Positions 11,857 to 43,560 of a stretch of 48,519 nt of DNA are shown here, in pieces. This DNA is from a virus. The notes below the pieces were generated by a model. The model had not been told where the DNA came from. It saw nothing but the letters and a program-made list of their open reading frames with translations, and did not search any database. The number at the start of each line of letters is the position of its first letter. The first letter of the stretch is position 1. The DNA is taken from the IMG/VR virus record IMGVR_UViG_3300010397_000018, positions 1 through 48,519 of that record; one strand, written 5' to 3'. Both the position numbers and the translations under genes were made by a program.

Positions 11857-11950
11857 ATTTTTACCATGTTCAGACTTTATCCTGACCCGCTGGATGCGTC
11901 TATAGGGTGCCCTGCTGCACCGTGATGCGCTGGCCGCAAAGTTGTTCACA

Positions 11951-19545: not shown

Positions 19546-19580
19546 GGTTCGGAGAGTTTAACGGGTTAAGTTCGGATTGT

Positions 19581-20552
19581 CTAGAAGTTGATCATCAGCC
19601 ACGCCACGGTGCTAATATCGTCAGTTTCCGTTCCGCCCGCTGGGCGCATCGCGGTAATTGTAAATGATGAGCCATTCGCCCTGAATACACTGTAGCTGGG
19701 TCCGTAGTGATGGCTCCCTGGCTCGGAATATCTATTGACCCAGATAAGGGTATTATTTGTGACGGACGTATTCGCCACGGTGACGGTGCCCAAAACCAAG
19801 GTCGCTAATCCAAATTGGATACTTGCTATCGTATCTCCATTCGATCCAACCGTTGTCGCGCCCCCGCTGATATTTACCGAACCGCTGGCGGTTATCGCCG
19901 CCGCCGCCAGCGTGCCGCCAAAGCTCGCCCCGGCCGTTCCGTTCCTGCGCACCAATTGATTAGCGGTAGCCGCCGAGGTCGCCGCCGCCAGGTCTGCCGT
20001 ATTGGCGTCGAGGTTGGTCTTGTCCGCCGCCGACTCGAAGCCCGCGACACTGGTGGTGGCGTTCGGGTGCAGGTTTCCGCCCGCTCGGCTGCCGTGCTGC
20101 GTATCCGAGATCGTTCCGCTGACGCTGACGAAATCGGGATAGATCAACACGCCGTTGTAATTGCGCGGCACCCACAACTTGCTGGTAGTTGTGTTGTAGT
20201 ACCAGCCCCAATCGCCATCGAGCGGGAAATTGGCTACGCCTGGGTCCGCGGTTCCGGTCTGGAATTTCAGGAGGTGCGCTAGGTCGTCTGCGAGCCCGGG
20301 CGGGATCGTGGCCTCGACGTAATTGTTTTTGGCGTCGTAGACCGCGAGCGCCACATTGCCGCCTGGAGTGAGGCGCGTCGTGGTGTCCCCGTCCTTCGTG
20401 CCCGTTGGGCGCTGATTCGTGATGCCCTGCTGCTGCGTCGAGCGCTGGCTTTGGGCGTCGATATCGTACAGGATCTTGCGGACGGCCACGTAGAGATCCT
20501 GCCCGCTCTGCGTCGTCGTGCTCTTCTTGGTATTGAGTCCGCGGGGGTTCAT
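19581..20552 (-). CDS. Tail fibre protein
   Basis: HGSRAGGNLHPNATTSVAGFESAADKTNLD matches the conserved tail-fibre motif (H..R..GG..H..At...aGf.s..dk.kld); T/S/A/G-rich beta-type C-terminus; ATGA overlap at start 20552. Confidence 0.7.
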   Translation of the reverse strand: MNPRGLNTKKSTTTQSGQDLYVAVRKILYDIDAQSQRSTQQQGITNQRPTGTKDGDTTTRLTPGGNVALAVYDAKNNYVEATIPPGLADDLAHLLKFQTGTADPGVANFPLDGDWGWYYNTTTSKLWVPRNYNGVLIYPDFVSVSGTISDTQHGSRAGGNLHPNATTSVAGFESAADKTNLDANTADLAAATSAATANQLVRRNGTAGASFGGTLAAAAITASGSVNISGGATTVGSNGDTIASIQFGLATLVLGTVTVANTSVTNNTLIWVNRYSEPGSHHYGPSYSVFRANGSSFTITAMRPAGGTETDDISTVAWLMINF

Positions 20553-22990: not shown

Positions 22991-23931
22991 TACGTGACCT
23001 TGGAGAGGACAACGAGCGTGTAGGGTTGCGTGAGCGCAGCGCCGTTCAGCGCAGTGGTGATGCCGGCCGCTTTGCCGCCCGTGACGCTCACGGTGGCAAC
23101 AGCGGTGCCAGTGGCCGTGACCGCCGTGAAAAAGGCGTTGTCGATTTGCAGCACAGCGTTGACGCCTGTGATGATGAAGGAGGCATCAAACTCGGACCGC
23201 ATCTCCATCGGGCCAAAGGTCTGATTTTGCGTGATGAGATCGCTCTTGATGTAGTCCGGGGAGCCGATGGCCAGCGTGACGCTATTGGTGGTATCCACCA
23301 CGGCGGCCTGGAAGCCAGCCGAGCCCGTGGTTGATCCTGTTCCCGCCGCAACACTCACGGACATCGCCGCGGTGGTGTAGCCGCGGATGCGGTACGTGCC
23401 CGGGGCCACGGTGAACTGATTTCCGCTGAACGCCACCACGATGCTGCTCTCGTTGAGCGTATTCGCGGTGAGTGGGCGTTGATACCACGTGTTGGCGGAT
23501 GACCCGCCGATGGTGGAAAGGTCGGCGCCGTTGGCGGCGCTTTGAACTAGGATGGCGGTAGGCATACTTTCTTCGTCCGGGTTTGGGTCGTAAATCAGCG
23601 AGGAGATGACGGGTCGGTGGAAAAGCTCATCGAGGGTGAAAATGGTCTCCGCGCCGTCGGCGGTCTGCACCATGACGTTGTTGGTGCCGTCCGTGAGCTG
23701 GTAGATGCGCCAGATCCCCGGGCCGAAAGCGAAGTGCTGCGCCTCTGTGGGGCGCAGGGTCGCCAGCCATTCCGTGCCCTCGACGCGCTGAAGTGCGCCG
23801 GCCTTGGATTGGTAGAGTCCATGGCACAGATCGAAGTTGGGCGATTCCAGCGCGTTTTGCGCTGGGCGCTCGTCCAGTCCGCCCAGCGTATCGAATTTGA
23901 TTTCTGAGTCTCTGGCGTCACGTGTCGGCAT
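22990..23931 (-). CDS. Tail/virion protein with a T/A/S-rich C-terminal half (313 aa)
   Basis: Position in the tail module; TAATG overlap with the next gene; C-terminal TAAMSVSVAAGTGSTTGSAGFQAAVVDTTNSVT-type beta-rich sequence. Confidence 0.4.
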   Translation of the reverse strand: MPTRDARDSEIKFDTLGGLDERPAQNALESPNFDLCHGLYQSKAGALQRVEGTEWLATLRPTEAQHFAFGPGIWRIYQLTDGTNNVMVQTADGAETIFTLDELFHRPVISSLIYDPNPDEESMPTAILVQSAANGADLSTIGGSSANTWYQRPLTANTLNESSIVVAFSGNQFTVAPGTYRIRGYTTAAMSVSVAAGTGSTTGSAGFQAAVVDTTNSVTLAIGSPDYIKSDLITQNQTFGPMEMRSEFDASFIITGVNAVLQIDNAFFTAVTATGTAVATVSVTGGKAAGITTALNGAALTQPYTLVVLSKVT

Positions 23932-23934
23932 TGG

Positions 23935-24546
23935 TTACGAAAAGTTCGCACTCCGCGCGGCCTTGAGGGCGTCGCGATACATCCCGTTGTAATCTGTGTT
24001 GGCGAAGTCCTGATCCCGGCTCCAATCCTTGTCCAAGGCGAGCACGCCGTAGGCGATGGCGTCGCAGATCAGCGGGTCGCCAGCCACATCGCTCCCGGCC
24101 AGCGTGGGCGGCTGCTTGTAGTAGGCGAAAGAGATCGTCTGCCCGATGGCCGTAAACTGCGGCAGCAGGCGGATGCTTCGGAGTCCGAGCGTTGAGCCAG
24201 CAACGATCGTGAATGCCTGCGGTAGATACGAGGACGTGAACGACTCCCACAGTTCGGAGTCGGGAGGGTAAACCTGCTCCAGTGGCTGTGATGGCGTGAG
24301 CGCCCCGGTAATGTTGATGCTGACGCCTTCGCTAGCGATCCGCTCGTAGTCCGCGGGCAGCGCGTAGTTCTGCGTCCCGCCTGTGACGGCGATGGTGTAG
24401 GGGACGCGCAGGAACGGCCAGTAATCGGTGCCAATTACCTTTCGGTAGACGACGTTAATGGCCTGCCCGAGCCGGGCATCCTGAGACGTGCCGTTGATGC
24501 GGGCCTGCGTCTTTACGAAGTCCAGAATTTCCGTGAACGTGGTCAT
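23935..24546 (-). CDS. Candidate head-tail adaptor (T7 gp11-like by size and position)
   Basis: 203 aa, immediately upstream of the tail genes; no motif-level evidence. Confidence 0.35.
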   Translation of the reverse strand: MTTFTEILDFVKTQARINGTSQDARLGQAINVVYRKVIGTDYWPFLRVPYTIAVTGGTQNYALPADYERIASEGVSINITGALTPSQPLEQVYPPDSELWESFTSSYLPQAFTIVAGSTLGLRSIRLLPQFTAIGQTISFAYYKQPPTLAGSDVAGDPLICDAIAYGVLALDKDWSRDQDFANTDYNGMYRDALKAARSANFS

Positions 24547-25467: not shown

Positions 25468-25854
25468 TTAGTTGTCGTAGCTGATCAGCGCAGAGCCACC
25501 GGAGACAGTGTATGCTACCTGGGTAAGCGACGTTGCTCCGCCATAGCCTCCACCGCCCACGGATGCGCCCACGGGCAGCGATTGGCCGCCAACGGTTACA
25601 GTTCCAGAAATGGCCGTGATGGACCATCCGTAGACGCCGCTGGGCACGTTCCCGTTCGAGGTAGCCGTGACGATGTTGCTGGTGTAGTTGCTCGCGCCAC
25701 TGCCGCCCGCAATATCGATGACCTTTAGGCCCACTTCGCCGCTTCCGGTCTTGCCGTAAATCAGATCCGAAAGGACCTGAACGACAATACTCTGAATCGT
25801 GGCGCTCGTCGCATTGTTGGATGCGTCGAGTATCCTGTTTGGTCCTGTGGGCAT
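25468..25854 (-). CDS. S/T/G-rich virion-module protein (128 aa)
   Basis: GGSGASNYTSNIVTATSNGNVPSGVYGW...VGGGGYGGATSLTQ composition. Confidence 0.5.
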   Translation of the reverse strand: MPTGPNRILDASNNATSATIQSIVVQVLSDLIYGKTGSGEVGLKVIDIAGGSGASNYTSNIVTATSNGNVPSGVYGWSITAISGTVTVGGQSLPVGASVGGGGYGGATSLTQVAYTVSGGSALISYDN

Positions 25855-25859
25855 GGCCG

Positions 25860-26294
25860 TTAGTTGATGCCGGTCTGCGTGCTGGTGTTGACGCTGTAGA
25901 TTTTCAGCAGGATGTAGGTCACGCCGTCACCCGCGGGCGTGCCGCCCTGCTTGTAGACGAGATCCGTGTCCGTCGTGAGGATCTTCTTTCCAACCGCGTT
26001 GCTGGCCGGGAGGAAGGTGCCACCCGTGGCAGCGGTCGCGGTGCTCGCGGCATTGATGAGGTCCGTGTAGCCGGAGGCGGTGTAGCCGACGCTCAGCGTC
26101 GGCGACGTGCCGCCATCAGCGGTCAGGACCACGATCTGCGCCTCGATGACCACCGGGGCGTACGTGCTGGCCTGCACCCGCATGAACGTCGTGGCGGTCG
26201 TGCTGGTGTTGCTGACGATGGGATAGGATTGCGTCGGGATGACGCTGCCCTGCCGGTCTCCGTAGATGCAGCCTGTGATGTTGGAATCGGCCAT
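25860..26294 (-). CDS. S/T-rich virion-module protein (144 aa), possible head fibre/decoration protein
   Basis: Directly downstream of the capsid gene; NTSTTATTF, AASTATAATGGTF stretches; start ATG 26294 is preceded by CCGAACC. Confidence 0.5.
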   Translation of the reverse strand: MADSNITGCIYGDRQGSVIPTQSYPIVSNTSTTATTFMRVQASTYAPVVIEAQIVVLTADGGTSPTLSVGYTASGYTDLINAASTATAATGGTFLPASNAVGKKILTTDTDLVYKQGGTPAGDGVTYILLKIYSVNTSTQTGIN

Positions 26295-26307
26295 GGTTCG
26301 GTGGTGG

Positions 26308-27267
26308 TTAGGAGCCGATCGACACGGCGCCGCGGTAGTCACGCACAAAGCCGACCCCGAAGCTGGTCGTGCAGCTCGTGTAGTAGGCGCGGGGGTTGAC
26401 CGGGCCAGCCGGGGCCAGCGGGTCCACCTCGTAGGGGATGCGCTCCAGCATGGAGACCGGGAACTTCTGCCCGTTCGGCGGCGCGAGGATGTACCACTTC
26501 GTCGAGCTGGTGAGCCAGTTGAGCGAGCGGTGGCGCAGCTTAAAGCTGGTGAGCACGTTGGTCGCGCGGTCCGCCGTGTTGGGCTTGTCCTGCGACTTCA
26601 CGATCTCATCGGCTGCCATGCCGAAGGACGGCGTGAGCGTCGGCGTGATGATCAGGAACTCCATGCCCCACGGCACGAAGCTGACCTTCGCGTAGTCCTG
26701 AAGACGCTTGAAGTAGCTGTTGATGATCAGCCACACGACCTCGGGGGTTGGCGGGACGCCCACGGCGTAGAGGTTGCTCCATGTGCCGGCGCCGTTCTCG
26801 TATTGGTGAACGGTCGAAAAGAACCGGCGCGCGGTGCCGTCGAGTTCCACGATGTTCTGCGTGAGGCCGTCGGTGTAGCCGTTGTTGTAGATGTCCGCCA
26901 CCACCTTGTCTTTCAGGCTGTTGACGGAACGCATCATGTCTCGGGCATTGTCGAGCGGCGCCCGGAAATACATGGTCTCGATGGCGGTCTTTTCCACCGT
27001 CACCTGCGATCGGTAGTTCGCGGTGCGGATGACCGACTTGTAGCCGGTGACGGGACTGACCTGCGGGAGCGGGTTCAGATCCTGCACCTGCGACGGAAAC
27101 GCGAGGCCCTGGATGCCCTGCATTTCGTTGGTGAGCTTCTGCGTGGTGTCCTGGCGCGCGAGATCAATCCATTCCCGCTCGGGGTCGAGGAAGATGTTTC
27201 GCTCCAACGACAGCAGGTTTTGGTTGTATGCCGCGAGGTAATTGACTGTATCGACTGGTGAAGGCAT
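26308..27267 (-). CDS. Major capsid protein (presumed HK97 fold)
   Basis: 319 aa, in the canonical position after the scaffold-like genes and before the connector/tail genes. The call rests on size and synteny only. Confidence 0.6.
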   Translation of the reverse strand: MPSPVDTVNYLAAYNQNLLSLERNIFLDPEREWIDLARQDTTQKLTNEMQGIQGLAFPSQVQDLNPLPQVSPVTGYKSVIRTANYRSQVTVEKTAIETMYFRAPLDNARDMMRSVNSLKDKVVADIYNNGYTDGLTQNIVELDGTARRFFSTVHQYENGAGTWSNLYAVGVPPTPEVVWLIINSYFKRLQDYAKVSFVPWGMEFLIITPTLTPSFGMAADEIVKSQDKPNTADRATNVLTSFKLRHRSLNWLTSSTKWYILAPPNGQKFPVSMLERIPYEVDPLAPAGPVNPRAYYTSCTTSFGVGFVRDYRGAVSIGS

Positions 27268-29547: not shown

Positions 29548-29891
29548 GCGGCGTCCTCCTTGGGAATGTAGAGTTCCACTTCGTTGCGCTTCACGCGATG
29601 CAGCGTGCGGCCCTCGATCTCGAAGTGGCCGGCGCCATTGCCGAAAAAGACAATCTCGGTTCCGGTGGGCAAATACCCCTCGCGACTCGCGCGCTGGCAA
29701 TTCCCATCGTTCACCATCATGGCGTTATAGCTAATGGCGTTCGGTTGGATGATGCGCCCGCGGTTGCCGATGGGGCCAAACTCCACAATCGCAAATCCTG
29801 GCATGGCCTTGATGGCCGTTTGCGGCGGCGTCCAGTTCTTGCGCCACTCCTCGTACTCGGCATCGGCTACGGCTCCCTGTGGAAAATTCAT
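29544..29891 (-). CDS. GroES/Cpn10-like small beta protein (115 aa)
   Basis: PGFAIVEFGPIGNRGRIIQP...LPTGTEIVFFGNGAGHFEIEGRTLHRVKRNEVELYIP resembles the Cpn10 layout (mobile-loop region plus GD.V.f...g..v..dG.ey.i....di.a); ATGA overlap with the portal stop. Confidence 0.35.
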   Translation of the reverse strand: MNFPQGAVADAEYEEWRKNWTPPQTAIKAMPGFAIVEFGPIGNRGRIIQPNAISYNAMMVNDGNCQRASREGYLPTGTEIVFFGNGAGHFEIEGRTLHRVKRNEVELYIPKEDAA

Positions 29892-32281
29892 GCGGCGGCT
29901 CCCTCTGGCGCTTGTTGCTGTTGCATAAATTGGCCGTGACCCTGCGGGGGCTGCTTTCCTTTCGCTGGGGGTGCAGAGCGTGGCGGATTGAGGGCCTGTT
30001 GCTGCGCAAGCTGCTGCTGAAATTGCATGGCCTGCTGCTGCGCGAAAAGTTGCTGTTGCTGCATGAGGCGCTGGTAAAGCAGGGGGATGTAGGTCGGATA
30101 CTGCTGAGCCCAATACGGATCTTGCAGCGCGGCCTCGAAAGCGCCGATGAACACCTCGTGCGGATCGCTCGGAAGGGCCGGGTCAGGAATGCCGTAGGCG
30201 AGGATCTTGTTGATGATGTTCAACGCCTTCGCCTGCGCGATACGCATCCCGTTGTCGGGCACCTTGGCGTCAATGCCCGCGAGCTTGAAATACTGGTTCC
30301 AGAGATCGGCGCGGATCGGCGCGAGCGTTGGGTCCATGGCGCTGGTTTGCAGGAGCGTCAAAAGCCCCTGCGCCATCGCCATCTTTTTCAGGAACTCTTT
30401 CGCAACGGCGGTGAAGATGCGGCAGGCTCCAAAGTAGGTGCGGCCGGTCAGTCGCATCACGTAATCGCGATCCCCGAAATGCTCGGTGTTCCACTGGATG
30501 AGCCGCGCGTATCCGCCTGAAATGTGGTGGTTGAAACGATCCACCATGATCACGAGCGGATTTTTCGCGGCATCGGTGGCCTCCCCGACTTCCAGCGCGG
30601 AGCGCCGCCCCTGCGCCAGTTCGCCGAGAAGCGTGTCTGTGGCGCCAAAGATGGATTGGATCTTCGCGTCGCAGCGGTCGATGTAGGGAATCAGCGTGAC
30701 CGAATCGTCGTAGCTACTCTGCTCGCACCGCTGGGCCTCGCGTGGGTCGGTCTCCCACGGGATCTTTACGCCGGCCGCGTTGAAGTTCTGCACCTTGTAG
30801 GCCGGGCTGTCGATCTGCACCTTCCACCCACGATTGATAGTTTGCTCCTTCGACTGCTCAAATTGGCATTCCGCCCGGGTAACCTGCTCGCACGCCAAGA
30901 GCATGATCTCGCTCTTACTCATCGGAATTGTCGCCGCGTCGTCCTCCACGAGATCCGCGCCGAAGAGGATCGGGATCGGCATTCCTTCCGGCATCTCCTG
31001 AATGCGGAGACACGTGGTTTGCAGCGTCAGGTCGCCGTAGAGATTGACGACGTAGCGCTTCTGCGGCGGGTGAACCTTTCCAGTGCCCTGGCACGTCGGG
31101 CAAGAAACTGGCCCGCTCGATACGCTGCTTCCATCGGGAGCCGTGGTGGCCGGTGGCGTGATTTGCCGCTGCCCCATGCATTGCGGACACTGGACGCCTT
31201 CTCCGGTGTCGAGATTTCCCTGCTCGTCGATGGCGAGCAAGGGATACATCGTCCACCGCTTGTGCGCCCGATCCCGGTTGAGGCCGCCGCCCACTTGGTC
31301 ATTCAGGTTGTAGCGCAGGCGCAGCCGGTCGCGCATTGGCTGCATGTCCACGTCGTTCAGACAAAAGTGGCCCTTGTCCGTTGTGATCGCGAGATCCACG
31401 TTGAGGTAGCCGAATGGGTTGGATTTCGCGTCGTAGCGGTTGCCGTCCAGGTCTGCGTTGGTGACGAACTCGCGCACCATCGGGCATGGCTGCGATTCAA
31501 TCGGGAACATCCGCACGAACGGATCGATCATGATGTCGTCGTAGTGCAGCGGGTTAAACGCTGTGGTGAGCTGCTGGCGCGTCTCGTGGAAGGCGATTCC
31601 TGGCCCCTGCGGCGTTTGCGCGATCTGCGGCTGCATGTCTTGGTGCTGGGCCAAGAGTTGCGCTAGCTCCATCTGGCTCCGAACGGGGACGGGCGGATGG
31701 ACGTAATCCACGTACCGCAATTCGAACGGGCAATGGACGGCGTTGTAGCCGTACTTCGCGAAGCACCCGAACGCCTGGCGGTGCTTGTCTCGAAAGCCGA
31801 CCTTCTCGCAATTCTGCCGGATGATGGAGTTGAGGGCCTTCGCCGATTGCGCCGTGGGCTGATAAAAAAACTCTTCATCCACATCCTCGGGGACCTCGGC
31901 GCGCATCGGCAGCCCGTCCTCGAAGCTCAGAATCTCGCCGATGTCCGTCACGGCTTTGATCTGCTTGAAGGGCATCACGGACTGCCCCTTGGCGCTTTGG
32001 CCGTCCTGCGGAATAGGTGTGGTGGCTTTTTGGGACGCCTGCGTTACCGCCGTGGTGTTGATGTCCGCGACCGAACTGCGGACACGCCACGCGTAATCAA
32101 TGCGGCGATTGGCATTCCAGAAACGCTGCTGCATCAGCTCGTACGGCCACCAGTATTCTTGCGATAGATACTGCGTGACCGCTTTGCACAGCTTCTCGTT
32201 CCCGGCCAAATTCGGGCCGATGATGGGCGGATGCTCATCGATGGCCGAGCTTGTTTCGTTTCCAGTCCATGGAGAAATCAT
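29888..32281 (-). CDS. Portal protein (797 aa) with an internal zinc-finger insertion and a Q-rich tail
   Basis: Largest head-module gene, between TerL and the scaffold. The call rests on size and synteny. Contains CPQCMGQR...CPTCQGTGK and a C-terminal QQRLMQQQQLFAQQQAMQFQQQLAQQQ. Confidence 0.6.
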   Translation of the reverse strand: MISPWTGNETSSAIDEHPPIIGPNLAGNEKLCKAVTQYLSQEYWWPYELMQQRFWNANRRIDYAWRVRSSVADINTTAVTQASQKATTPIPQDGQSAKGQSVMPFKQIKAVTDIGEILSFEDGLPMRAEVPEDVDEEFFYQPTAQSAKALNSIIRQNCEKVGFRDKHRQAFGCFAKYGYNAVHCPFELRYVDYVHPPVPVRSQMELAQLLAQHQDMQPQIAQTPQGPGIAFHETRQQLTTAFNPLHYDDIMIDPFVRMFPIESQPCPMVREFVTNADLDGNRYDAKSNPFGYLNVDLAITTDKGHFCLNDVDMQPMRDRLRLRYNLNDQVGGGLNRDRAHKRWTMYPLLAIDEQGNLDTGEGVQCPQCMGQRQITPPATTAPDGSSVSSGPVSCPTCQGTGKVHPPQKRYVVNLYGDLTLQTTCLRIQEMPEGMPIPILFGADLVEDDAATIPMSKSEIMLLACEQVTRAECQFEQSKEQTINRGWKVQIDSPAYKVQNFNAAGVKIPWETDPREAQRCEQSSYDDSVTLIPYIDRCDAKIQSIFGATDTLLGELAQGRRSALEVGEATDAAKNPLVIMVDRFNHHISGGYARLIQWNTEHFGDRDYVMRLTGRTYFGACRIFTAVAKEFLKKMAMAQGLLTLLQTSAMDPTLAPIRADLWNQYFKLAGIDAKVPDNGMRIAQAKALNIINKILAYGIPDPALPSDPHEVFIGAFEAALQDPYWAQQYPTYIPLLYQRLMQQQQLFAQQQAMQFQQQLAQQQALNPPRSAPPAKGKQPPQGHGQFMQQQQAPEGAAA

Positions 32282-32318: not shown

Positions 32319-33017
32319 TCAATGCCATTCATGGCCATGTTTCGGAAGATCCGCGTGCAGCGCCACCGTGTAAGTGTCGATTCCAACCTTGAGTCCGCAC
32401 TCGCGCGCCAGCTTGCAGACGCCGTACCAGCCAGTGAACGCGGGGTGATCAGGAACGCCAGCCATGGAGAAGATGTCAGCCGGCGCGAGGAACATCATGC
32501 CCACCACGTCCATCTCCACAAAGCGCTCCTGTTGGGGCAGCGGATGGCCGTCGAAGTCATGCCAGTAGGGCGCGTCATGCTTCAGGTTCCGGCCAGCGAT
32601 GTTACCCGGCGTGTTGGGCGCCACACCGTCGGTGCCCTTCTGGATGCACGCGGCGGTGTCGTAGAGCCGCGGCGTGCCTTCGATGAGCGGCAGCGGCGCG
32701 GTGATCCCCGTGGGGTTCACGCTCAGCAGGCGGCTGCACACGTCGGCTGGGTAATCGATCACGTCGGCGTCCACCCAGAGAACGAAGTCCCACTGTCCCA
32801 GGTCCACGGCGCGCACGCACCGGTCCGCCACGCGGCAAAGGCGGCTCCATGGGCTCGCCTCGTTCGGCAGGCTCTCGCCCTCGCGGAAGTCCAGCCAGAG
32901 CCCAAACTCGTGCTCTTTATCCGAGGCAATCGCGCGGTGCGCAAGCCCCATGGCTCGGCATTGGAGCGCGTAGTTTAGCTTCCGATGTATCGGCGAACAG
33001 ATGAGGATTCTTGCCAT
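32319..33017 (-). CDS. GT-A fold glycosyltransferase (DxD)
   Basis: ILICSPIH N-terminal strand, FVLWVDADVIDYP DxD motif, MDVVGMMFLAP; start trimmed to MARILIC (ATG 33017, overlapping the upstream gene by 43 nt). Confidence 0.6.
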   Translation of the reverse strand: MARILICSPIHRKLNYALQCRAMGLAHRAIASDKEHEFGLWLDFREGESLPNEASPWSRLCRVADRCVRAVDLGQWDFVLWVDADVIDYPADVCSRLLSVNPTGITAPLPLIEGTPRLYDTAACIQKGTDGVAPNTPGNIAGRNLKHDAPYWHDFDGHPLPQQERFVEMDVVGMMFLAPADIFSMAGVPDHPAFTGWYGVCKLARECGLKVGIDTYTVALHADLPKHGHEWH

Positions 33018-33580
33018 ATGGTCATGAGTTGGCGGCGGTTCGGGACATTGGCCCAATGCCGGATCAGGGTGTGCGGCCCTGCGTTGTGCTCGAAAGCGTT
33101 CCACGTGCTGCGGTCGAGGTAATGCACGTCGAGATCGTCGATGAACGTGTTGAGGACGCCCTGCTCGTTCCACGGCGTCTGCGCATATTTCGGATCTTTG
33201 TATCCGGCGTAAACGCGATCCAGCGCCGCGAACGCCTCGGGGCACTGGCGCCAGCACATCACGCCAGAGTTGGCGTGCCCTTCGTCGCGAGTGATGGCCA
33301 GCGTGTAATCGCCCAGCAGTTCCCAAGTCTCAGCCTGCGTGGGCGGCCGCAGCATCACGGCGTCGGCGTCGATGCACAGGACGTAGGGGTGCGATTCTAG
33401 TAGGCGGCGGATGATCTGGATCTTGGCCCAGTACGGCGGCCGGTCGTAATCATCCTTGATGTATTCGAAATCGTAGGCGAACGCCGGGAGCCCGCGAATC
33501 GCGCGCTTGATGGACTCCCCGGAAATGATGGCCTCGCCCATCATCTTGTAGTTGGCCGAGCCGGAAATCAGGATAGGCAC
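32975..33580 (-). CDS. Nucleotide-diphospho-sugar glycosyltransferase (GT34/GT8-like)
   Basis: PILISGSANY, PPYWAKIQIIRRLLESHPYVLCIDADAVML (DxD), HANSGVMCWRQC, WNEQGVLN; GTG 33580 overlaps the 3' end of the upstream gene. Confidence 0.65.
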   Translation of the reverse strand: MPILISGSANYKMMGEAIISGESIKRAIRGLPAFAYDFEYIKDDYDRPPYWAKIQIIRRLLESHPYVLCIDADAVMLRPPTQAETWELLGDYTLAITRDEGHANSGVMCWRQCPEAFAALDRVYAGYKDPKYAQTPWNEQGVLNTFIDDLDVHYLDRSTWNAFEHNAGPHTLIRHWANVPNRRQLMTIWQESSSVRRYIGS

Positions 33581-34611
33581 AGCAGCTCCTTTGCTTTGGC
33601 GACGACGACCTCGGGGGAAATTGCCGCGAGGGCAGCGCACGATTTACCATCAAAGCTTGGCGCGTCCTTACACTGATGCGGCAGGACGAAGAGATGACTG
33701 CGGCAGGGAGCGTGCGGACAGGCGCGGAAGCCGACAATCGGGTGGTGATTGCGGTAATAGCGGATGCGGTCGCCGGGATGGAAGAGACCCCATAGCGAAA
33801 TCACAGGCACATGCGGGAATGCGGCCGCGAGGTGGCCAATGCTGCTGTCTGGGCAAATGACGATGGAGGCAAATTTCACGTATGGAATCATCGCGCGGAA
33901 GGTGCGCCACTTTTGCTTTTCTCCGGCCTCAACGACGAAGATTCCCTCTAGTTGGAGACGGAGAATTAGTTCCTTCGTATGGGGCCAATCTCGATTGCCA
34001 TTGCTGCATCCGTTCTGGATGAAAACGTACTGGCCTTCGATTGGGGGCTTCCCATCAAAGATGTTGTCGTCGTCCTTTTCCACCACCACCGGAATCTTCC
34101 GGTCGCTCGGCACACTCGCCGGATCGATGCCCGCGAAGGCCAGCATGTTATCGATCGCGCATCGCTGGTCCGGCTCGCTGTCCGACTCCAGCATGTTCTC
34201 GTAAAACAAATGCTGGTCACCGCGGACCTCATCGAGCACCGGAAATCCGGGGCGGACGTTCACGCCCAGCCCATGCCACAGGTCCACGTTGCTCGGCCGG
34301 CAGTAGAGATCAATCTGCGCCTCGGGATTTCGCCGGCGGATCTCTGCCACGACGGCCGTCGCCATCAGGGTGTCGCCGATGGCGCCGTGGCGATAGATTG
34401 CCAGCCGTCCGCTGCCGAGCGGCTGGCCATGGTATCGGTTCTCGTACGAGTTGAAATGCGAGAGCCGATACTCCACTTCGGCGCCGAGCCTTTCGATGAG
34501 CCCCGATTCTAGCGTGCGCGCCATGCCCGTCGGCACGACGTAGCGCACGCCAGGCTGAAAGACGGTGCCGTCCTTAGTGTCGATCTGATGCGGGCTGGAA
34601 AAGATGTGCAT
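33568..34611 (-). CDS. GT9-family glycosyltransferase (heptosyltransferase-like)
   Basis: RLAIYRHGAIGDTLMATAVVAEIRRRNPEAQIDL (GT9 N-terminal signature) and ICPDSSIGHLAAAFPHVPVISLWG (DSGpmHLAAA...P.v.lfG); ATG 34611 lies 5 nt after the TerL stop. Confidence 0.75.
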   Translation of the reverse strand: MHIFSSPHQIDTKDGTVFQPGVRYVVPTGMARTLESGLIERLGAEVEYRLSHFNSYENRYHGQPLGSGRLAIYRHGAIGDTLMATAVVAEIRRRNPEAQIDLYCRPSNVDLWHGLGVNVRPGFPVLDEVRGDQHLFYENMLESDSEPDQRCAIDNMLAFAGIDPASVPSDRKIPVVVEKDDDNIFDGKPPIEGQYVFIQNGCSNGNRDWPHTKELILRLQLEGIFVVEAGEKQKWRTFRAMIPYVKFASIVICPDSSIGHLAAAFPHVPVISLWGLFHPGDRIRYYRNHHPIVGFRACPHAPCRSHLFVLPHQCKDAPSFDGKSCAALAAISPEVVVAKAKELLCLS

Positions 34612-34615
34612 GGAA

Positions 34616-36592
34616 TCAAGCGGCTTCGGCGTAGTCTGTGCGGCGGGACCGGATCTCTTCGTTGGGAACCCAGCGCAGGCTGTGGTTCGTGGCGTAGCAC
34701 AGGCCGTCAATTTCATCGTCCCCGGTCTTCTCCGGGTCGCCCGTGAAAGCGCCCGTGTTCGTCATCCCCCAAAGGTAGTGCTCCAGTCGTTCGATGAGAT
34801 TGGACTTCGGATTGCCGTGGTCGTGGCAATCGCTGACGACGTAGAGATCGTAGCCGTACGGATGCTTGTCGGTTTCCTGGTCGGGGTTGAGATGCTGCCG
34901 CGACGGGTTGGGGCGGAACATGCCATTGGTGTGCGTGCAGCGTTCCCGAGGGGAGCGAGTGCTGGCGCGCTCCAGCTTCAACCCCGAGCGGGCGTATTCG
35001 TGCCCCCAGTTGTCCATGAGATATTTTGGATCGGCTTTGAAGAGCTTGGAGTCGCCGAAGGTCTTTCGGATGGTTTCCGTTTTCTCCACCTCTCGAAAGC
35101 GAACGATGCGCTCCCCAGTCTTTTCCTCGCGCTCGCGGTCCTTAGCCAACTCGGGAGCGAACATCATCGTTGCCTGGATCTGCTTTTCGTCGGCGGCGGT
35201 GAAATCCCGCTGCACCTGCTGAAGCTCGTTGCCCGACATCTTCACGATCAATTCGCAGCGCTCCTTGATGGAGGTGGCGGTGCGTCCAAAGAGCCGGAAG
35301 GCGACTTTCTCGCCGGTCTTAAGCATCGCAATCCAGACGCAGGTTGCGCGGTGAACAAAGCCCTCGTCGTAGCCGCGCACGATGTTGGCGTCTTCGAATT
35401 TGGATAGCCATGGGTAGCGCGTTTTTTCCTCGGGTGTGGACTTTCCGTAGATCGCGCTCGACACCATTTCCCCAGTCACGGGGAGGACGTGACGATCGCG
35501 GTCGAAGAGATCAAACACGCGCGGGCTGCTGTCGAAGAACCCGCCACCCATCGCGACCTCGCCTTCCTCTCCGCGGGTCGAGAGCGTGGCGATACGCGCA
35601 TCCAAGACCTTCTTGGGCGTGATGCGCTCCGGCATCTTGCGCATGTCGGATTTCATCACGTAGGTCTTGCCGATGAGCTGCATCTTTCCGTCCCACACCT
35701 CGCGCGCCACCTGCACGCGGTCCTTGGTGTTGGCCGCCTCGGCTGGCGTGTAGCTCCAACTGATGTAGAGGCTGCGCGCCACGATCTCATCGACCACGGC
35801 CCGCGGAGGTCCCTCATCAAAGACCGTCATAAAAAGCTCCTCGCCGCCCCACGCCTGGATGTCCGACTTGTAGAGCATCCCCACGAGATCGACGCCCCAC
35901 TGGGTCTTGAAGTAGCGTTCGCTCAGATTCCAGACGTAGCTCTTGCCGTCCGGGTGCCGCTGCACGTAACGCATGGGCACGCGGTCGCGATAATGTCGCT
36001 CAATTTTGCGCTTCCAGTGCTGCTCATCGACGCACCCGTGCCAGATGATCCGCCCTTGCACCGGGGGCTCATCGCGCTCGTAGGCCATGCGCTGCTTGCG
36101 CTGCCAGTAGTCGAACATCGGGCGGCGGAAGATTTGGTATCCACGGCCCAAGTGATCGCGTTGCGGCTGATACATCTGCCACTCGGGATCGTTGGGGAAG
36201 ATCCACAGAAGGGCGTTCAAGACCGTGCCGAGCGTCTTGCCGCTGCGCTTTCCCCCGAAATTCACGACGCTGTTGTATCCCTCCTCGGCCTTGTCGGGCT
36301 CAAACTCCGGGCTCCATGCGTTCAGGAATTGCGCCTGCTCGTACGTCGGCACGAAGAAGGCGAGGGGATTCTCGCGCTCCCCGGCCTTGATCAGCCGATC
36401 ACGCAGGACATCCACGCGGTCGTCGTATTCCTCCAGAATCTTCAAATCCTCGTTCACCTGCTGGGGATTCGCGACCACCATGTCCTCCCACCATTGGCGC
36501 TCCTGCTCCAGTTGCATCAGGCTCTTCTGCGGAAAGTTGGCTTTCCACGAGGCCCTGAACTCGTGCATAGTGTGGGCGTCGGCGGCGCTCAT
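34616..36592 (-). CDS. terL: Terminase large subunit
   Basis: Walker A NFGGKRSGKT, Walker B-like ELFMTVFDEG, 658 aa with a C-terminal nuclease-sized domain. Confidence 0.85.
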   Translation of the reverse strand: MSAADAHTMHEFRASWKANFPQKSLMQLEQERQWWEDMVVANPQQVNEDLKILEEYDDRVDVLRDRLIKAGERENPLAFFVPTYEQAQFLNAWSPEFEPDKAEEGYNSVVNFGGKRSGKTLGTVLNALLWIFPNDPEWQMYQPQRDHLGRGYQIFRRPMFDYWQRKQRMAYERDEPPVQGRIIWHGCVDEQHWKRKIERHYRDRVPMRYVQRHPDGKSYVWNLSERYFKTQWGVDLVGMLYKSDIQAWGGEELFMTVFDEGPPRAVVDEIVARSLYISWSYTPAEAANTKDRVQVAREVWDGKMQLIGKTYVMKSDMRKMPERITPKKVLDARIATLSTRGEEGEVAMGGGFFDSSPRVFDLFDRDRHVLPVTGEMVSSAIYGKSTPEEKTRYPWLSKFEDANIVRGYDEGFVHRATCVWIAMLKTGEKVAFRLFGRTATSIKERCELIVKMSGNELQQVQRDFTAADEKQIQATMMFAPELAKDREREEKTGERIVRFREVEKTETIRKTFGDSKLFKADPKYLMDNWGHEYARSGLKLERASTRSPRERCTHTNGMFRPNPSRQHLNPDQETDKHPYGYDLYVVSDCHDHGNPKSNLIERLEHYLWGMTNTGAFTGDPEKTGDDEIDGLCYATNHSLRWVPNEEIRSRRTDYAEAA

Positions 36593-36894
36593 GGTGTCCG
36601 CGCCTTCAGCTTCTCGTTCTCTTCTCGGAGACGGCGAATCTCATTCCGCAATGCCGCTGGGGAGCTTTCGATGGGCAGGTGCTCGGGCTTGTCTTTATTC
36701 CAGCGCGCAATTTGCCGCAAAGCTATATCGCTGCGCTTGTAGTATTCTGGATCGCCGCAATTCCATGGCAGCCCAATATTGTCATGCACCACGCAAACCC
36801 CATTCGGATCATAAAGCCGAGTGTGGGTGTGACTGTTTTCGATCCTCCAGCCGTCTGGCAGATAGTCCCCTTTTTGCTCTGGAATATGATTCAT
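36589..36894 (-). CDS. Hypothetical protein (101 aa), positional candidate for the small terminase
   Basis: ATGA overlaps at both ends (with TerL at 36589-36592); LPDGWRIENS motif; C-terminal coiled coil LRNEIRRLREENEKLKA. Confidence 0.3.
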   Translation of the reverse strand: MNHIPEQKGDYLPDGWRIENSHTHTRLYDPNGVCVVHDNIGLPWNCGDPEYYKRSDIALRQIARWNKDKPEHLPIESSPAALRNEIRRLREENEKLKARTP

Positions 36895-37658
36895 GGCTGC
36901 CACCGCTGAAGCTCGTAGCCCTCCATGGGCTTGCCGCAAAAGATCGTGAACTGGAAGGGGTGGTCGCTGCTCTCGGAACTACCCATGCCGAGGCGGTCCC
37001 AAATGTATTTTGATACGCCTCCACCCCCGTGTAGATCCACATCGCCCACCACGGCCATGAAGCGGTCGCCCCGGGAGCGGTCCCAAACGCTGGCAGCGCT
37101 GCCAAGCACAAGCGGCCATTCATCGCGCCAGTGCAGCATTAGCTCCAGCGGAACGGAAATATAGGGCACCGTGGACGCGTTCAGATACCGGCGCGGGTCG
37201 GTCTCCTCATGCTTCAAATGTTGGTAGGCCGTACGGCTCACTAGATGGCCGGGAACCGGGTCGCCAGCGCCTTGTTGGACGCAGTATTCCCCGCGGCGAA
37301 CGATGGCTGTAAAGCCCCGCGCGCGCTGCTCCTCAATCTCGCCCAGGGCGTTCTGATTGAACGGGTGGTATGCCGTGGGCGCTCCGTTGATCACGCGGTG
37401 TGCGCGACCAATCCAATCAACGCTGCCGTCCTCGAATCGGTAGAGGAGCGAGCCATGCGCCTTGCAGACGATGCGCGGCCACAACTTGGCCTTTGGCGCA
37501 TGAGTCGGCAGTGCTTTCGGCAGGATGCCCGGGCGCAAGGTCGTCTTTCGGATGATCTTCTCCCGGCCAATCGGAGCCAGCCCGAGCCCATGCGCGCGCT
37601 GCTGGCGCTGGAGATCCGCGGTGGCGGTGTGGTCTTCGATGGGGAGGTAGTCGCTCAT
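36891..37658 (-). CDS. Candidate cell-wall hydrolase, GH75 chitosanase-like
   Basis: YLNASTVPYISVPLEL...LVLGSAASVWDRSRGDRFMAVVGDVDLHGGGGVSKYIWDRLG resembles the GH75 core (ld.n.ipYvVlp ... aavv...gk.vyaivgD.g....iGE.S...a..lG). Comparison is from memory only. Confidence 0.3.
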   Translation of the reverse strand: MSDYLPIEDHTATADLQRQQRAHGLGLAPIGREKIIRKTTLRPGILPKALPTHAPKAKLWPRIVCKAHGSLLYRFEDGSVDWIGRAHRVINGAPTAYHPFNQNALGEIEEQRARGFTAIVRRGEYCVQQGAGDPVPGHLVSRTAYQHLKHEETDPRRYLNASTVPYISVPLELMLHWRDEWPLVLGSAASVWDRSRGDRFMAVVGDVDLHGGGGVSKYIWDRLGMGSSESSDHPFQFTIFCGKPMEGYELQRWQP

Positions 37659-37926: not shown

Positions 37927-38430
37927 TTAGGCAGTAATTTGCAGTCGTTGTTTCAGGCGCTCAGCGGCCGGCGCCTCGGTCTCGCGCATGGCTTTCAGGG
38001 CCATGATCTCTTGGATGCTTCCGCCGATGATGTTGATCGTGTTTCCGCCGCCCATCATGGACGCCGGGGTCTCTTTGATCTGCGAGATGCCGATGTCGTT
38101 CTGCTGCTTGGCGATGGTGGAAAGCTCCTTGGGCTCCATGAGTGCCAGACGAGCGGGATCGGAAAGCTGCTGCGCCAGCCCCTTCTGGGCCATCGCGCAC
38201 AGCATGAATCCCTGTTGCGCAATGCCCTTGCCGATGGCGTTGAGGTCTCGCGGGCGCATCTCGGCCAGCCGTTGCAGTTCTGGCCAGCCCACGCCCCACG
38301 TCTGGCAAAGCTGAAGCATCTGCGCGCGGTCGGGGTTCTTCGCCAGCTCGGAGCAGACGCCGACCACGACAGCCGGGGCGAGCCCCGTGTCCGCGGCGAG
38401 ATCGGCGATTAGTTCTTCTTTGTCAGTCAT
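37927..38430 (-). CDS. Hypothetical protein (167 aa); a small-terminase role is possible
   Basis: Helical protein in the packaging/lysis-proximal cluster; no motif recognised. Confidence 0.3.
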   Translation of the reverse strand: MTDKEELIADLAADTGLAPAVVVGVCSELAKNPDRAQMLQLCQTWGVGWPELQRLAEMRPRDLNAIGKGIAQQGFMLCAMAQKGLAQQLSDPARLALMEPKELSTIAKQQNDIGISQIKETPASMMGGGNTINIIGGSIQEIMALKAMRETEAPAAERLKQRLQITA

Positions 38431-39814: not shown

Positions 39815-39888
39815 TGGAGCGCCGCCTCAGATTCGAACTGAGATTGCGGGCGTGGAAGGCCCGTGGTCTGCCGTTGACGTAGTGGCGC
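39815..39888 (-). tRNA. tRNA-Gly (anticodon UCC), CCA encoded
   Basis: Hand fold of GCGCCAC-TA-CGTC-AACGGCA-GACC-A-CGGGC-CTTCCAC-GCCCG-CAAT-CTCAG-TTCGAAT-CTGAG-GCGGCGC-T-CCA. Canonical T-loop, U33, A37, U73 discriminator typical of tRNA-Gly; one A6.C67 mismatch. Confidence 0.85.
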
Positions 39889-40209: not shown

Positions 40210-40285
40210 TGGTCGCGCGCGCCGGATTTTAACCAGCGGCCTCTCGGTCCCAGGCCGAGCGCTCTGAACACTGAGCTAGCGCGCG
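40210..40285 (-). tRNA. tRNA-Pro (anticodon UGG), CCA encoded, non-canonical loops
   Basis: CGCGCGC-TA-GCTC-AGTGTTCA-GAGC-G-CTCGG-CCTGGGA-CCGAG-AGGCC-GCTGG-TTAAAAT-CCGGC-GCGCGCG-A-CCA. Perfect 7-bp acceptor stem; C1-G72/A73 and G37 fit Pro identity. However it has C33 instead of U33, A56 in the T-loop, and no GG in the D-loop. Confidence 0.7.
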
Positions 40286-43146: not shown

Positions 43147-43560
43147 TCACCGAAGCAGCGCGCGCAGATCCGCCAGGCGCTTGCGAAGGTCCGGATCGTT
43201 GGCGCAGCGATGCTCTACGGCGCCGATGGCGTGGACAACCGTGCTGTGATCGCGCCAGCCGAAGGCGACGCCGATGTCTACCATCGAAAGCATCGTCAAT
43301 TCGTGCGCGAGCACCATGGCGATTTGCCGGGCCTCGGCCTGCTCACGCTTGCCGCGGCCCTTGGTCTTCATGGTCCGGAGCTCGACGCCAAACTCGTCCG
43401 CAACGGCCTTCTGGACGCGCCAGAGCCTCGCCAGCTCGCGATCCATCTGCGGCTTGGTCAAGAGAGCGCTCAGCCGGGCGTAGCCGCGCCGGCGAAGCTC
43501 TTGGAGTAGTTCGCGATCATCGCACTCCCCCAGGCACGCGGTTGGGGTTGGGGTGGTCAT
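43147..43560 (-). CDS. Stand-alone DnaA domain IV (DnaA-box-binding HTH) protein
   Basis: RQIAMVLAHELTMLSMVDIGVAFGWRDHSTVVHAIGAVEHRCANDPDLRKRLADL matches Bac_DnaA_C (aRqiAMyL.re.t..S...IG..FG.rDHsTV.ha); only 137 aa, with no AAA+ domain. Confidence 0.75.
   Translation of the reverse strand: MTTPTPTACLGECDDRELLQELRRRGYARLSALLTKPQMDRELARLWRVQKAVADEFGVELRTMKTKGRGKREQAEARQIAMVLAHELTMLSMVDIGVAFGWRDHSTVVHAIGAVEHRCANDPDLRKRLADLRALLR

Follow-up and report, generated by a model that had tools for sequence, protein, structure and literature searches.

To our knowledge, phage-encoded virion glycosylation has been shown experimentally only in mycobacteriophages, where it was reportedly treated by Freeman et al. 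in Cell Host Microbe in 2023. According to another account (PMC12619734), mycobacteriophages encode glycosyltransferases for which a role in decorating capsid and tail proteins, perhaps as a shield, has been proposed. The GT9 enzyme TibC, a BAHT (PDB 4RAP/4RB4), carries an N-terminal barrel of 97 aa, made of two four-stranded sheets, and a Cys4 iron finger with the spacing CX2C-X15-C-X11-C (PMC4358343, eLife 2014); the TibC/AAH class further has a beta-hairpin thumb and assembles into a dodecameric ring (PMC4358343). Other phage glycosyltransferases extend glycans on DNA; among them are GT-A enzymes for which A64R is the top PDB match, and some of these adjoin terminase genes (bioRxiv 10.1101/2023.12.21.572611). 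Here we compare with these systems a cassette of three glycosyltransferase genes situated between TerL-like and portal-like genes of an uncultured phage. We give about even odds (a probability of roughly 0.5) to the reading that it is a late-expressed, wholly cytoplasmic module glycosylating the phage's own virion proteins, which are the putative acceptor.

A glycosyltransferase cassette between TerL-like and portal-like genes

The cassette lies on the minus strand of IMGVR_UViG_3300010397_000018, an uncultured phage sequence of 48,519 nt that is referred to below as the window. The features discussed are as follows:

34616..36592, minus strand: TerL-like large terminase, 658 aa, named from motifs and position; upstream cassette boundary
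33568..34611, minus strand: GT9-family GT-B glycosyltransferase, 347 aa, ATG at 34611; constant cassette member
32975..33580, minus strand: GT34/A64R-like retaining GT-A glycosyltransferase, 201 aa, GTG start at 33580 (middle glycosyltransferase)
32319..33017, minus strand: glycosyltransferase of 232 aa, GT62/GT25-like and putatively GT-A, with a DxD motif, ATG at 33017 (third glycosyltransferase)
29888..32281, minus strand: portal-like protein, 797 aa, ATG at 32281; downstream cassette boundary
11942-13066: integrase-like gene

The initial annotation had described three glycosyltransferase genes tightly packed between the large terminase and the portal; the packing is confirmed, and the sequence motifs that it quoted are all present in the minus-strand translations. 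The stop codon of the TerL-like gene (TGA, 34618-34616) is followed by a 4-nt spacer, TTCC, and then by the ATG of GT9. The middle gene overlaps GT9 by 13 nt, with an AAGGAG Shine-Dalgarno sequence upstream of its GTG, the third gene overlaps the middle one by 43 nt, and 37 nt separate the stop of the third gene from the portal-like ATG. The N-terminus that begins at the ATG at 33017 is kept in homologues of the third glycosyltransferase; one gene caller took an ATG 22 codons downstream. On the cassette strand, the TerL-portal interval contains no promoter-like and no convincing terminator-like site. The GC and GC3 of the three genes are typical of the genome, which argues against their being recent morons, and the cassette is ~19 kb away from the integrase-like gene. 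The placement first suggested, within the head-morphogenesis block and not as a moron by the integrase, therefore stands, and we propose that the cassette is expressed late with the head genes.

Both boundary genes are named conditionally. The TerL-like protein contains a Walker A motif (GGKRSGKT), a Walker B motif (LFMTVFDE) and nuclease-type GYDEG and DDEIDGLCYA motifs, all invariant among the aligned relatives, and we infer its identity from these motifs together with its position and synteny. The putative portal is so called from its size, its conservation and its position ahead of scaffold-like, capsid-like and SU10-type adaptor genes, and its gene is kept beside TerL in all relatives. 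Neither protein has a match in Pfam, PHROGs or NCBIfam, their family profiles find no credible solved structure among PDB sequences, and the TerL-like protein finds no match by tblastn in GenBank phages. One protein of the same phage is of the tailspike type and has a K1-lyase_C chaperone domain.

Identity of the three enzymes

The assignment of the first enzyme to GT9 is upheld by domain, profile and structural evidence that agree with one another. PF01075 reaches 28.6 bits, above its cut-off of 22, over residues 241-305 only, and is present in all 41 GT9 homologues. Searched against PDB sequences, the family profile matches WaaF best (1psw, 3e-13), has WaaC also among its best matches, and finds no TibC chain at E<=10. 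The AF2 model (pLDDT 95) has the two-lobe GT-B fold, and its top 23 Foldseek matches in the PDB are all GT9 enzymes (1psw WaaF, 4rap/4rb4 TibC, 3tov and WaaC entries). Residues G79-D80, K172, D255-S256, H260 and W274-G275, which align to WaaF motifs, are invariant in 40 sequences, as are four cysteines (C298, C303, C314 and C325) that form the motif CPHAPCRxH...C...C. In the model an N-terminal extension of ~65 aa, with several short strands and one helix, accompanies an N-lobe of four main strands. This acceptor lobe is net negative in 40/40 family members (median -6.4), which speaks against an anionic acceptor (e.g. Kdo-lipid A or DNA). NCBIfam equivalogs score far below cut-off (19 vs 185 bits), and the traces are all of LPS heptosyltransferases; in BFVD, a phage protein with the annotation Aah/TibC matches best.

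The middle glycosyltransferase alone scores 22.3 bits with PF03407 (cut-off 22) and 18.5 with PF05637 (GT34; cut-off 23). PF05637 is matched by 29/40 aligned sequences (the query and 39 homologues), at best with 8.7e-25. Its profile finds the GT34 enzymes XXT5, XXT2 and XXT1 at 2e-14 to 1.5e-11 and PBCV-1 A64R at 5e-6, and the model (pLDDT 95) has A64R (2p72) as its best Foldseek match, with a TM of 0.76. Residues D71-x-D73, N104, G106 and W51 are invariant and H175 is nearly so. The GT34 matches of the homologues, the XXT/A64R profile matches and the structural match support the GT34-like GT-A enzyme that had been proposed.

The third glycosyltransferase alone remains under the Pfam threshold (PF03452, Anp1, 14.1 bits vs 28.8), and 4 of 23 homologues carry that domain. 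Over the DxD half only, its profile matches Mnn9 (GT62, 4.8e-5) and COLGALT1 (GT25, ~4e-4), and D83-A-D85 and H221 are the same in all 21 sequences. The profile matches and the invariant DxD are consistent with the GT-A/DxD type originally suggested, for an enzyme that appears to resemble both GT62 and GT25 and is assigned to neither. The maximal 19-residue hydropathy of the three proteins is 0.9-1.5; the cassette enzymes are without transmembrane segments, and no cassette contains a flippase, polymerase, Gtr-type protein or priming phosphoglycosyltransferase.

Inheritance and neighborhood in relatives

Across relatives, GT9 identities of 66/53/58/43/36% stand beside TerL identities of 74/62/55/42/36%, and GT9 follows the identity of both TerL and the portal down to ~35%. 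This parallel indicates vertical inheritance, with GT9 as a core gene. TerL-based scans recovered two phage groups, a new contig (L018) and a microbial-mat group already known; GT9 is found near TerL on every TerL-relative contig with enough flanking sequence, and no GT9-less TerL relative was retrieved for a with/without comparison. The positions seen elsewhere are to be read with the fact that most loci were retrieved through GT9 itself. The microbial-mat group has the cassette 3' of the portal, as does a lambda-like phage whose GpA terminase and Phage_portal_2 are recognized by Pfam. In L009 the cassette directly precedes a TerL that tblastn confirmed, and in L027 it lies upstream of a putative TerL. 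In L006, L007, L008, L010 and L031 the retrieved flanks contain neither TerL nor portal, and the position rule is there either not universal or unscorable. Third-enzyme homologues occur inside structural modules of two unrelated phage types, L029 (Mu-F ... capsid E) and L030 (SPP1 portal/capsid ... tail), and a GT34-like gene lies between capsid and adaptor genes in L028. The survey of synteny that the initial annotation called for thus finds GT9 co-inherited with TerL and portal, and the cassette near one or the other in several unrelated lineages; these comparisons, with the third-enzyme homologues in structural modules, strengthen the case for a role connected with the virion.

The partners of GT9 differ from one relative to the next and include GT2 and GT4 enzymes, sugar O-methyltransferases, an acetyltransferase and a radical SAM enzyme; one relative, P0016, encodes a GT9::GT34 fusion. 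Such hypervariable partners around a constant GT9, together with the fusion, form a pattern typical of a surface glycan that is primed and then diversified.

Among 50,697 GenBank phage records, which include mycobacteriophages, no match was found to the 8-kb region by blastn or to any of the three glycosyltransferases by tblastn. The GT9 subfamily was not found in 185,579 GTDB species genomes by pattern scan and tblastn, which argues against a recently borrowed host LPS gene, and a scan of GTDB genomes with the TerL alignment retrieved no relative. The system had been called undescribed, which is borne out among cultured phages and in the literature that was searched; some proteins of uncultured phages, however, already carry GT9 and 'Aah/TibC' annotations.

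Acceptor, sugar and alternative explanations

In a virion glycosylation pathway, GT9 would act as the priming enzyme and attach the first sugar, probably heptose from host ADP-heptose, to a putative protein acceptor. Two further enzymes, one retaining and GT34/A64R-like, the other GT62/GT25-like with a DxD motif, would then lengthen the glycan, in what we infer to be this order. In relatives, the GT2, GT4, O-methyltransferase, acetyltransferase and radical SAM enzymes would replace or join the extension enzymes, and the glycan would thus differ from phage to phage. The observations beneath this pathway are the enzyme identities, the gene arrangement, the co-inheritance, the variability of the cassettes, the absence of membrane components and the acidic lobe; against it, the nearest characterized relatives of GT9 by sequence are LPS heptosyltransferases. 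A wider proposal, which we advance tentatively and consider rather unlikely, is that GT9-primed virion glycosylation may be an ancient core trait of several uncultured tailed-phage lineages, in which a TibC-like Cys4-finger enzyme heptosylates folded virion proteins (e.g. beta-helical tailspikes or head proteins) and hypervariable enzymes give each phage a coat of its own. Bacterial viruses would then have a counterpart of chlorovirus capsid glycosylation, and this would be the first system of protein heptosylation outside autotransporter adhesins.

The idea that S/T-rich virion proteins receive the glycan was not supported. The capsid protein has an ordinary C-terminus and a highest S/T fraction of 0.30 in a 30-residue window, and neither it nor the other virion proteins show an S/T-rich tail, a low-complexity acceptor or any striking S/T-rich tract. 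In a comparison of all GT9-bearing loci for a shared candidate acceptor gene, only GT9 itself was common. No heptose-pathway genes were detected among the window ORFs scanned. In L031, the cassette of a 34%-identical GT9 homologue includes a GmhB-like phosphatase, a suggestive match at 159 bits vs a cut-off of 178, and GT9 family membership together with this phosphatase points indirectly to heptose as the putative donor sugar. The L029 cassette, which is without GT9, contains a small nucleotidyltransferase weakly resembling rfaE_dom_II. An epimerase of L010 was considered as HldD and rejected, with better matches to TviC, LegB and GalE.

The main rival is late modification of a host envelope glycoconjugate, with the inner core of LPS, a host surface protein, or an O-unit or capsule precursor carried on Und-PP as candidates. 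Acceptors made by the host would be modified by the enzymes at the cytoplasmic face, and the outcome would be a block to superinfection or to adsorption of progeny to debris. We regard this as unlikely, with a chance well short of even. WaaF and WaaC head the sequence matches of the GT9 profile, and the NCBIfam traces are likewise all of LPS heptosyltransferases; WaaC, however, has basic residues in its acceptor lobe, and the acidic N-lobe of all GT9 family members fits anionic Kdo-lipid A poorly. LPS/O-antigen loci typically contain enzymes like the partners seen here, of the GT25, GT8 and GT2 types, along with O-methyltransferases and acetyltransferases, and the tailspike-type protein, through its K1-lyase_C chaperone domain, suggests a polysaccharide receptor. 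The GT9 subfamily was not found in the GTDB genomes, which counts against a host LPS gene borrowed recently. Soluble glycosyltransferases can use lipid-linked acceptors without membrane segments of their own, although no cassette has the priming phosphoglycosyltransferase, flippase or Gtr-type component. Late co-expression would suit modification of the host surface equally well; the cassette is nevertheless inside the late head operon and not beside int/att, without a promoter-like site of its own, and host-range or conversion genes are not usually co-inherited so stably with TerL and portal among phages that differ so much.

Improbable, in our estimation, is some other cytoplasmic acceptor, such as a non-structural phage protein, a host protein (e.g. 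a defence or translation factor that is inactivated), a small molecule or a free oligosaccharide. All cassette enzymes are soluble, and bacterial cytoplasmic protein glycosyltransferases with targets other than surface proteins exist. A glycan made by several enzymes, hypervariable and tailored, is nonetheless hard to square with a single regulatory modification, and the recurrent nesting of the genes among head and tail genes would then be without an obvious rationale.

Glycosylation of phage DNA, in which a hydroxylated base is hypermodified just before or during packaging, would explain the terminase neighborhood, and we consider it very improbable. The DNA-glycan enzymes with A64R as top PDB match and terminase genes as neighbors speak for it (bioRxiv 10.1101/2023.12.21.572611), as do some distant cassettes with radical SAM enzymes or with N6/N4 DNA methyltransferases nearby. 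The pathway to a hydroxymethylated pyrimidine is, however, missing from what was annotated: the window's larger ORFs, in a window where several ORFs remain unannotated, include no ThyS-like hydroxymethylase, TET/5mYOX or C5-methyltransferase, and none of these enzymes appears in the Pfam annotations of the relatives. T4 beta-GT is absent from the best 50 structural matches of GT9, whose acceptor lobe is acidic. The sugar O-methyl and acetyl tailoring enzymes in relatives' cassettes also count against DNA, and we know of no DNA hypermodification that features such enzymes. Seroconversion of the Gtr/Oac type was rejected on the combination of no membrane proteins, no promoter-like site belonging to the cassette and a distance of ~19 kb from the integrase-like gene.

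The cassette supplies a sequence marker, namely a GT9 that combines a beta-rich domain at its N-terminus with an acidic acceptor lobe and CPHAPCRxH...C...C and is encoded beside TerL or portal. The marker is inherited vertically in one phage clade, recurs in the same neighborhood in others, and is surrounded by an O-antigen-like variable tailoring set. If the virion is the acceptor, many environmental phages would wear glycan coats that differ from strain to strain, and this would bear on adsorption, stability, grazing, immune recognition and phage engineering. Heptosylation of proteins would then reach beyond autotransporter adhesins. If the host envelope is the acceptor, the cassette would represent a new class of late-expressed, soluble receptor-editing system.

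Relation to described glycosylation systems

DNA hypermodification (T4 alpha/beta-GT; 5hmC/5hmU) shares with this locus the clustering of GT-A and GT-B enzymes, sometimes near a terminase. Seroconverting phages (GtrABC, Oac) likewise encode enzymes for glycan modification, and an integrase-like gene is present here too, but the window's cassette has no membrane proteins, does not adjoin that gene and draws on other enzyme families. From the mycobacteriophage system it differs in that the three glycosyltransferases have no tblastn match there, the capsid is without a C-terminal S/T-rich extension, and the glycosyltransferase genes, a GT9 among them, are inside the head operon.

WaaC and WaaF (PDB 2GT1, 2H1H, 6DFE, 1PSW) are the best sequence-profile matches of the phage GT9 and have the same fold, and the GxGD catalytic-base motif and the C-lobe D-S...GxxH...WG nucleotide-sugar motifs are common to both. 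The phage enzyme differs from them in its extra N-terminal domain, its Cys4 insertion, its shorter acidic N-lobe and its head-operon location. The link to TibC/AAH drawn in the initial annotation survives as a partial structural resemblance and not as family membership. The phage GT9 has a GT9-type GT-B fold with TibC among its top structural matches (TMq 0.58-0.61), and in the model it appears to share an additional N-terminal beta-rich domain and a reduced, four-stranded N-lobe. Its four invariant C-lobe cysteines follow the conserved Trp at about the same distance as the TibC iron finger, an equivalence suggested by spacing only. Like TibC/AAH it is soluble and cytoplasmic, which makes a protein acceptor plausible. 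There is, however, no match at the sequence level, and the enzyme is structurally no closer to TibC than to WaaF. Its extension of ~65 aa contrasts with the 97-aa eight-stranded barrel of TibC and its cysteine spacing, CX4C-X10-C-X10-C, with CX2C-X15-C-X11-C; the model is without a beta-hairpin thumb, and the gene is phage-encoded and not next to an autotransporter.

An A64R-like match is also reported for glycosyltransferases that extend DNA glycans (bioRxiv 10.1101/2023.12.21.572611), and such a match therefore does not specify the acceptor. The middle glycosyltransferase matches domain 1 of PBCV-1 A064R (2P6W/2P72) with a TM of 0.75-0.76 and an rmsd of ~3.2 Å over ~207 columns. A64R is the capsid-glycosylating enzyme of PBCV-1, and the match to it counts toward the virion reading; we know of no counterpart there to a GT9 priming enzyme. 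The two systems differ in host, eukaryotic for PBCV-1 and bacterial here, and the sequence identity is ~15%. In concept they are alike, in that soluble glycosyltransferases, joined in relatives of the phage by sugar methyltransferases, are encoded by the virus and act independently of host machinery, here on a putative acceptor.

Genome and gene context

Exactly the same 123 nt open and close the window (1-123 and 48397-48519), which indicates a complete assembly, circular or circularly permuted, of about 48,396 bp (~48.4 kb). Its sequence is that of ENA contig k141_5899233 (48,537 bp; analysis ERZ27256655). Its GC content is ~60% and the minus strand carries nearly all genes, including a cassette of three glycosyltransferases (GTs). 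RecT with a PDDEXK exonuclease and RusA were also recognised, alongside the following features.

Features of the window
3946-5052, DNA polymerase III beta sliding clamp
11942-13066, plus strand, integrase-like gene
19581-20606, tail protein with K1-lyase_C chaperone domain
23935-24546, SU10-type adaptor
26308-27267, capsid-like protein
29888-32281, minus strand, portal-like gene
32319-33017, minus strand, third GT
32975-33580, minus strand, middle GT
33568-34611, minus strand, GT9
34616-36592, minus strand, large terminase (TerL)-like gene
39815-39888, minus strand, tRNA-Gly(TCC)
40210-40285, minus strand, tRNA-Pro(TGG)
43147-43560, DnaA C-terminal HTH-domain protein
45581-47368, primase-DnaB fusion

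The 48-kb phage encodes its own beta clamp, DnaA-C HTH protein and primase-DnaB fusion, and the region of the two tRNA genes is of lower GC (0.56). A 341-aa tail protein, whose ORF shares 58 nt with the preceding gene (813 aa), has the K1-lyase_C intramolecular-chaperone domain (19593-19814) at its C-terminus, which suggests a tailspike that binds or degrades polysaccharide. Among GenBank phages, none was related to the window at the DNA level and none gave a protein-level match to TerL or to a GT of the cassette; GTDB genomes yielded no related prophage.

Neither TerL nor portal matched any library searched. In TerL, the Walker A, Walker B and nuclease-type motifs are invariant, and the portal is inferred from its size and synteny. 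An insertion resembling a zinc ribbon (CxxC...CxxC), unusual in portals, lies at residues 363-404 of the portal-like protein (window 31070-31195); it gives weak DnaJ_CXXCXGXG and anti-TRAP matches and is kept in the consensus of relatives (portal alignment A5). Upstream of TerL, ~300 nt (within 36589-36939) separate its start from the conserved gene of a 255-aa protein (36891-37658); the only ORF there, of 116 aa with a TTG start, overlaps both neighbours. No small terminase was identified near TerL, the candidates being the 255-aa protein and one of 167 aa (37927-38430).

Arrangement and identity of the glycosyltransferases

The TerL stop (TGA, 34618-34616) is followed after 4 nt by the GT9 start (ATG at 34611). 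The middle GT, whose GTG start (33580) has AAGGAG upstream, shares 13 nt with GT9 and 43 nt with the third GT, and 37 nt lie between the third GT stop and the portal ATG (32281). The arrangement of three GT genes in the initial annotation stands, with its spacers corrected from 5 to 4 nt after TerL and from 38 to 37 nt before the portal. In the public annotation, the third GT begins 22 codons downstream (210 aa; window 32951-33017); the longer N-terminus (MxRILI...) is conserved among homologues and would be the first beta-strand of a GT-A fold. Consensus scans, which are weak evidence, returned no sigma-70-like promoter in 25-40 kb of the window and no convincing terminator on the coding strand at 32.3-36.6 kb. 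For the three genes, GC (0.60-0.64) and GC3 (0.74-0.80) both fall within the genome range (0.615±0.021 and 0.761±0.064).

All three proteins proved to be glycosyltransferases of the kind first proposed for each. GT9 matches Pfam PF01075 above threshold, its catalytic GxGD aspartate (D80) and C-lobe motifs are invariant, and the best structural matches of its AF2 model (pLDDT 95) are solely GT9 enzymes. Queried alone, the middle GT lies at threshold for PF03407 and below threshold for GT34; an exhaustive search found 211 relatives, and 29 of 40 aligned sequences match GT34. Its profile matches plant GT34 xylosyltransferases (2e-14) and the chlorovirus enzyme PBCV-1 A64R (5e-6). A64R is also the best match of its model (pLDDT 95; TM 0.76), followed by the retaining GT-A enzymes GlyE, glycogenin, LgtC and GT6. 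The third GT is sub-threshold in Pfam on its own; across its family (21 sequences) a DAD motif and a C-terminal His are invariant, and the family profile matches Mnn9 (GT62, 4.8e-5) and COLGALT1 (GT25, ~4e-4).

TibC/AAH and WaaC/WaaF had both been put forward as possible nearest relatives of GT9. Its 40-sequence family profile favours WaaF (3e-13, spanning both lobes) over WaaC (1e-3), and structure returns WaaF, TibC, 3tov and WaaC. In BFVD, the best match comes from an uncultured phage and carries the annotation 'Glycosyltransferase Aah/TibC'. Compared with WaaC/WaaF, the phage enzyme has an added 65-aa beta-rich N-terminal extension, an N-lobe with only four main strands, and a C-lobe insertion with four invariant cysteines (CPHAPCRxH...C...C). 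Three hallmarks distinguish the bacterial autotransporter heptosyltransferases, enzymes such as TibC that heptosylate proteins: a beta-barrel at the N-terminus, an N-lobe of four strands, and an iron finger formed by four cysteines (C339, C342, C358 and C370; PMC4358343). The phage model differs from TibC in lacking the hairpin thumb; with the thumb discounted, spacing from the Lys/Arg and Trp motifs, rather than superposition, would place the phage cysteine cluster at the position of the TibC finger.

A conserved GT9 gene with variable partners

GT9 homologues (n=41), many on 44-52 kb contigs, extend the comparison to related phages. In the clade of the window, GT9 is present in every TerL-portal gap, and its partners differ.

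Content of the TerL-portal gap and identity to the window (GT9, TerL, portal)
Window: GT9, GT34-like, GT62-like
L001: GT9, GT34-like, GT62-like; 66%, 74%, 85%
L028: GT9, GT62-like, with the GT34-like gene moved between the capsid and adaptor genes; 53%, 62%, 58%
L025 and L026: GT34-like, unknown, CmcI-type methyltransferase, GT2, hexapeptide acetyltransferase, GT9; 58%, 55%, 54% (L025)
L003: GT9::GT34 fusion, then methyltransferase, HNH, GT2, acetyltransferase; 43%, 42%, 51%
L014 (identity only): 36%, 36%, 31%

GT9 identity declines in step with that of TerL and portal, which argues that GT9 is a vertically inherited core gene. TerL-seeded searches recovered relatives that all carry GT9 (a microbial-mat group plus L018, a new contig), apart from one 1.3-kb fragment too short to include neighbours. 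The fusion in L003 (P0016, 10001-11692) is a natural 563-aa protein whose C-terminal portion shares 39% identity with the middle GT of the window, and it argues for both enzymes acting in one pathway. In L028, a close relative, the relocated GT34-like gene (19335-19931) is still inside the structural module; this genome also carries an IS1595-family transposase (DDE_Tnp_IS1595, 2681-3751).

Cassettes in other lineages
Microbial-mat group: TerL, portal, GT9, methyltransferase, GT2, methyltransferase, radical SAM ... capsid
Lambda-like phage with Pfam-recognised GpA terminase and Phage_portal_2: portal, GT9, methyltransferase, unknown, methyltransferase, radical SAM
L009: GT9, GT4 ... two methyltransferases, directly upstream of a terminase-matching protein
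L027: GT9, DUF5662, methyltransferase, upstream of putative TerL and portal, then an SU10-type capsid gene
L029: 4431-8789, in a Mu-F ... capsid E phage type
L030: 3502-10442, in an SPP1 portal/scaffold/capsid ... tail phage type

Annotated large terminases from 358 phage records match the downstream protein of L009. In L029 and L030, which belong to two unrelated types of phage, third-GT homologues lie in glycan cassettes within the structural module, together with a radical SAM enzyme, nucleotidyltransferase, FkbM and other methyltransferases, GT4 and epimerase. In five further loci (L006, L007, L008, L010, L031), GT9 lies within or beside long sugar-metabolism operons that include epimerase/dehydratase, GT2, FkbM and other methyltransferases, deacetylase and a GmhB-like phosphatase; neither TerL nor portal was seen in their fetched flanks. 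The window's three-GT order between TerL and portal recurs in L001.

Acceptor and sugar

The most economical reading, to which we assign a probability of about 0.5, is late cytoplasmic glycosylation of virion proteins: the conserved GT9 would prime a virion-protein acceptor, and the variable enzymes would then lengthen and tailor the glycan. Transmembrane-like segments are absent from the cassette enzymes of every locus (only two 59-aa ORFs in L003 have one), which indicates that the chemistry is cytoplasmic and has no export, flippase or Gtr-type step of its own. Two observations weigh against a protein acceptor: no gene besides GT9 itself is common to all GT9 loci, and obvious S/T-rich tracts are absent from the virion proteins, so the S/T-rich acceptors of the initial annotation were not borne out. 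Candidate acceptors include the capsid protein (26308-27267), two head-proximal proteins somewhat richer in S/T (25860-26348 and 25468-25854), the portal, and the tail and tailspike proteins (13723-17586, 19581-20606, 20549-22990 and 22990-23931).

Late editing of host envelope glycoconjugates is a doubtful, though the next most probable, alternative. The GT9 acceptor lobe is acidic in 40/40 family members (median net charge -6.4) and the donor lobe basic, which disfavours both Kdo-lipid A and DNA as acceptors. Some other cytoplasmic acceptor for these enzymes seems improbable. Glycosylation of DNA is very improbable given the acidic lobe and a scan of the window's larger ORFs that found no hydroxymethyl-pyrimidine route, even though the A64R-like match is compatible with it, since DNA-glycan phage GTs also match A64R (bioRxiv 10.1101/2023.12.21.572611).

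For virion glycosylation, GT9 family membership points to heptose as the first sugar. This is weakly backed by the distant L031 cassette (11659-12147 and 1349-2182), which encodes a GmhB-like heptose-1,7-bisphosphate phosphatase (159 bits, cut-off 178) and a PfkB-family kinase, with a polysaccharide deacetylase and an RGP/GT75-like protein; the gene set hints at phage-encoded heptose metabolism.

Comparison with known systems

A vertically inherited GT9 with TibC-like extras beside TerL or portal, accompanied by a hypervariable tailoring set, was not found in the searched literature or in cultured phages. To that extent the module is undescribed, as first proposed, but GT9 and 'Aah/TibC' annotations already exist on uncultured-phage proteins. 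Virion glycosylation by phage-encoded enzymes is known in mycobacteriophages, and capsid glycosylation by virus-encoded enzymes is known in chloroviruses.
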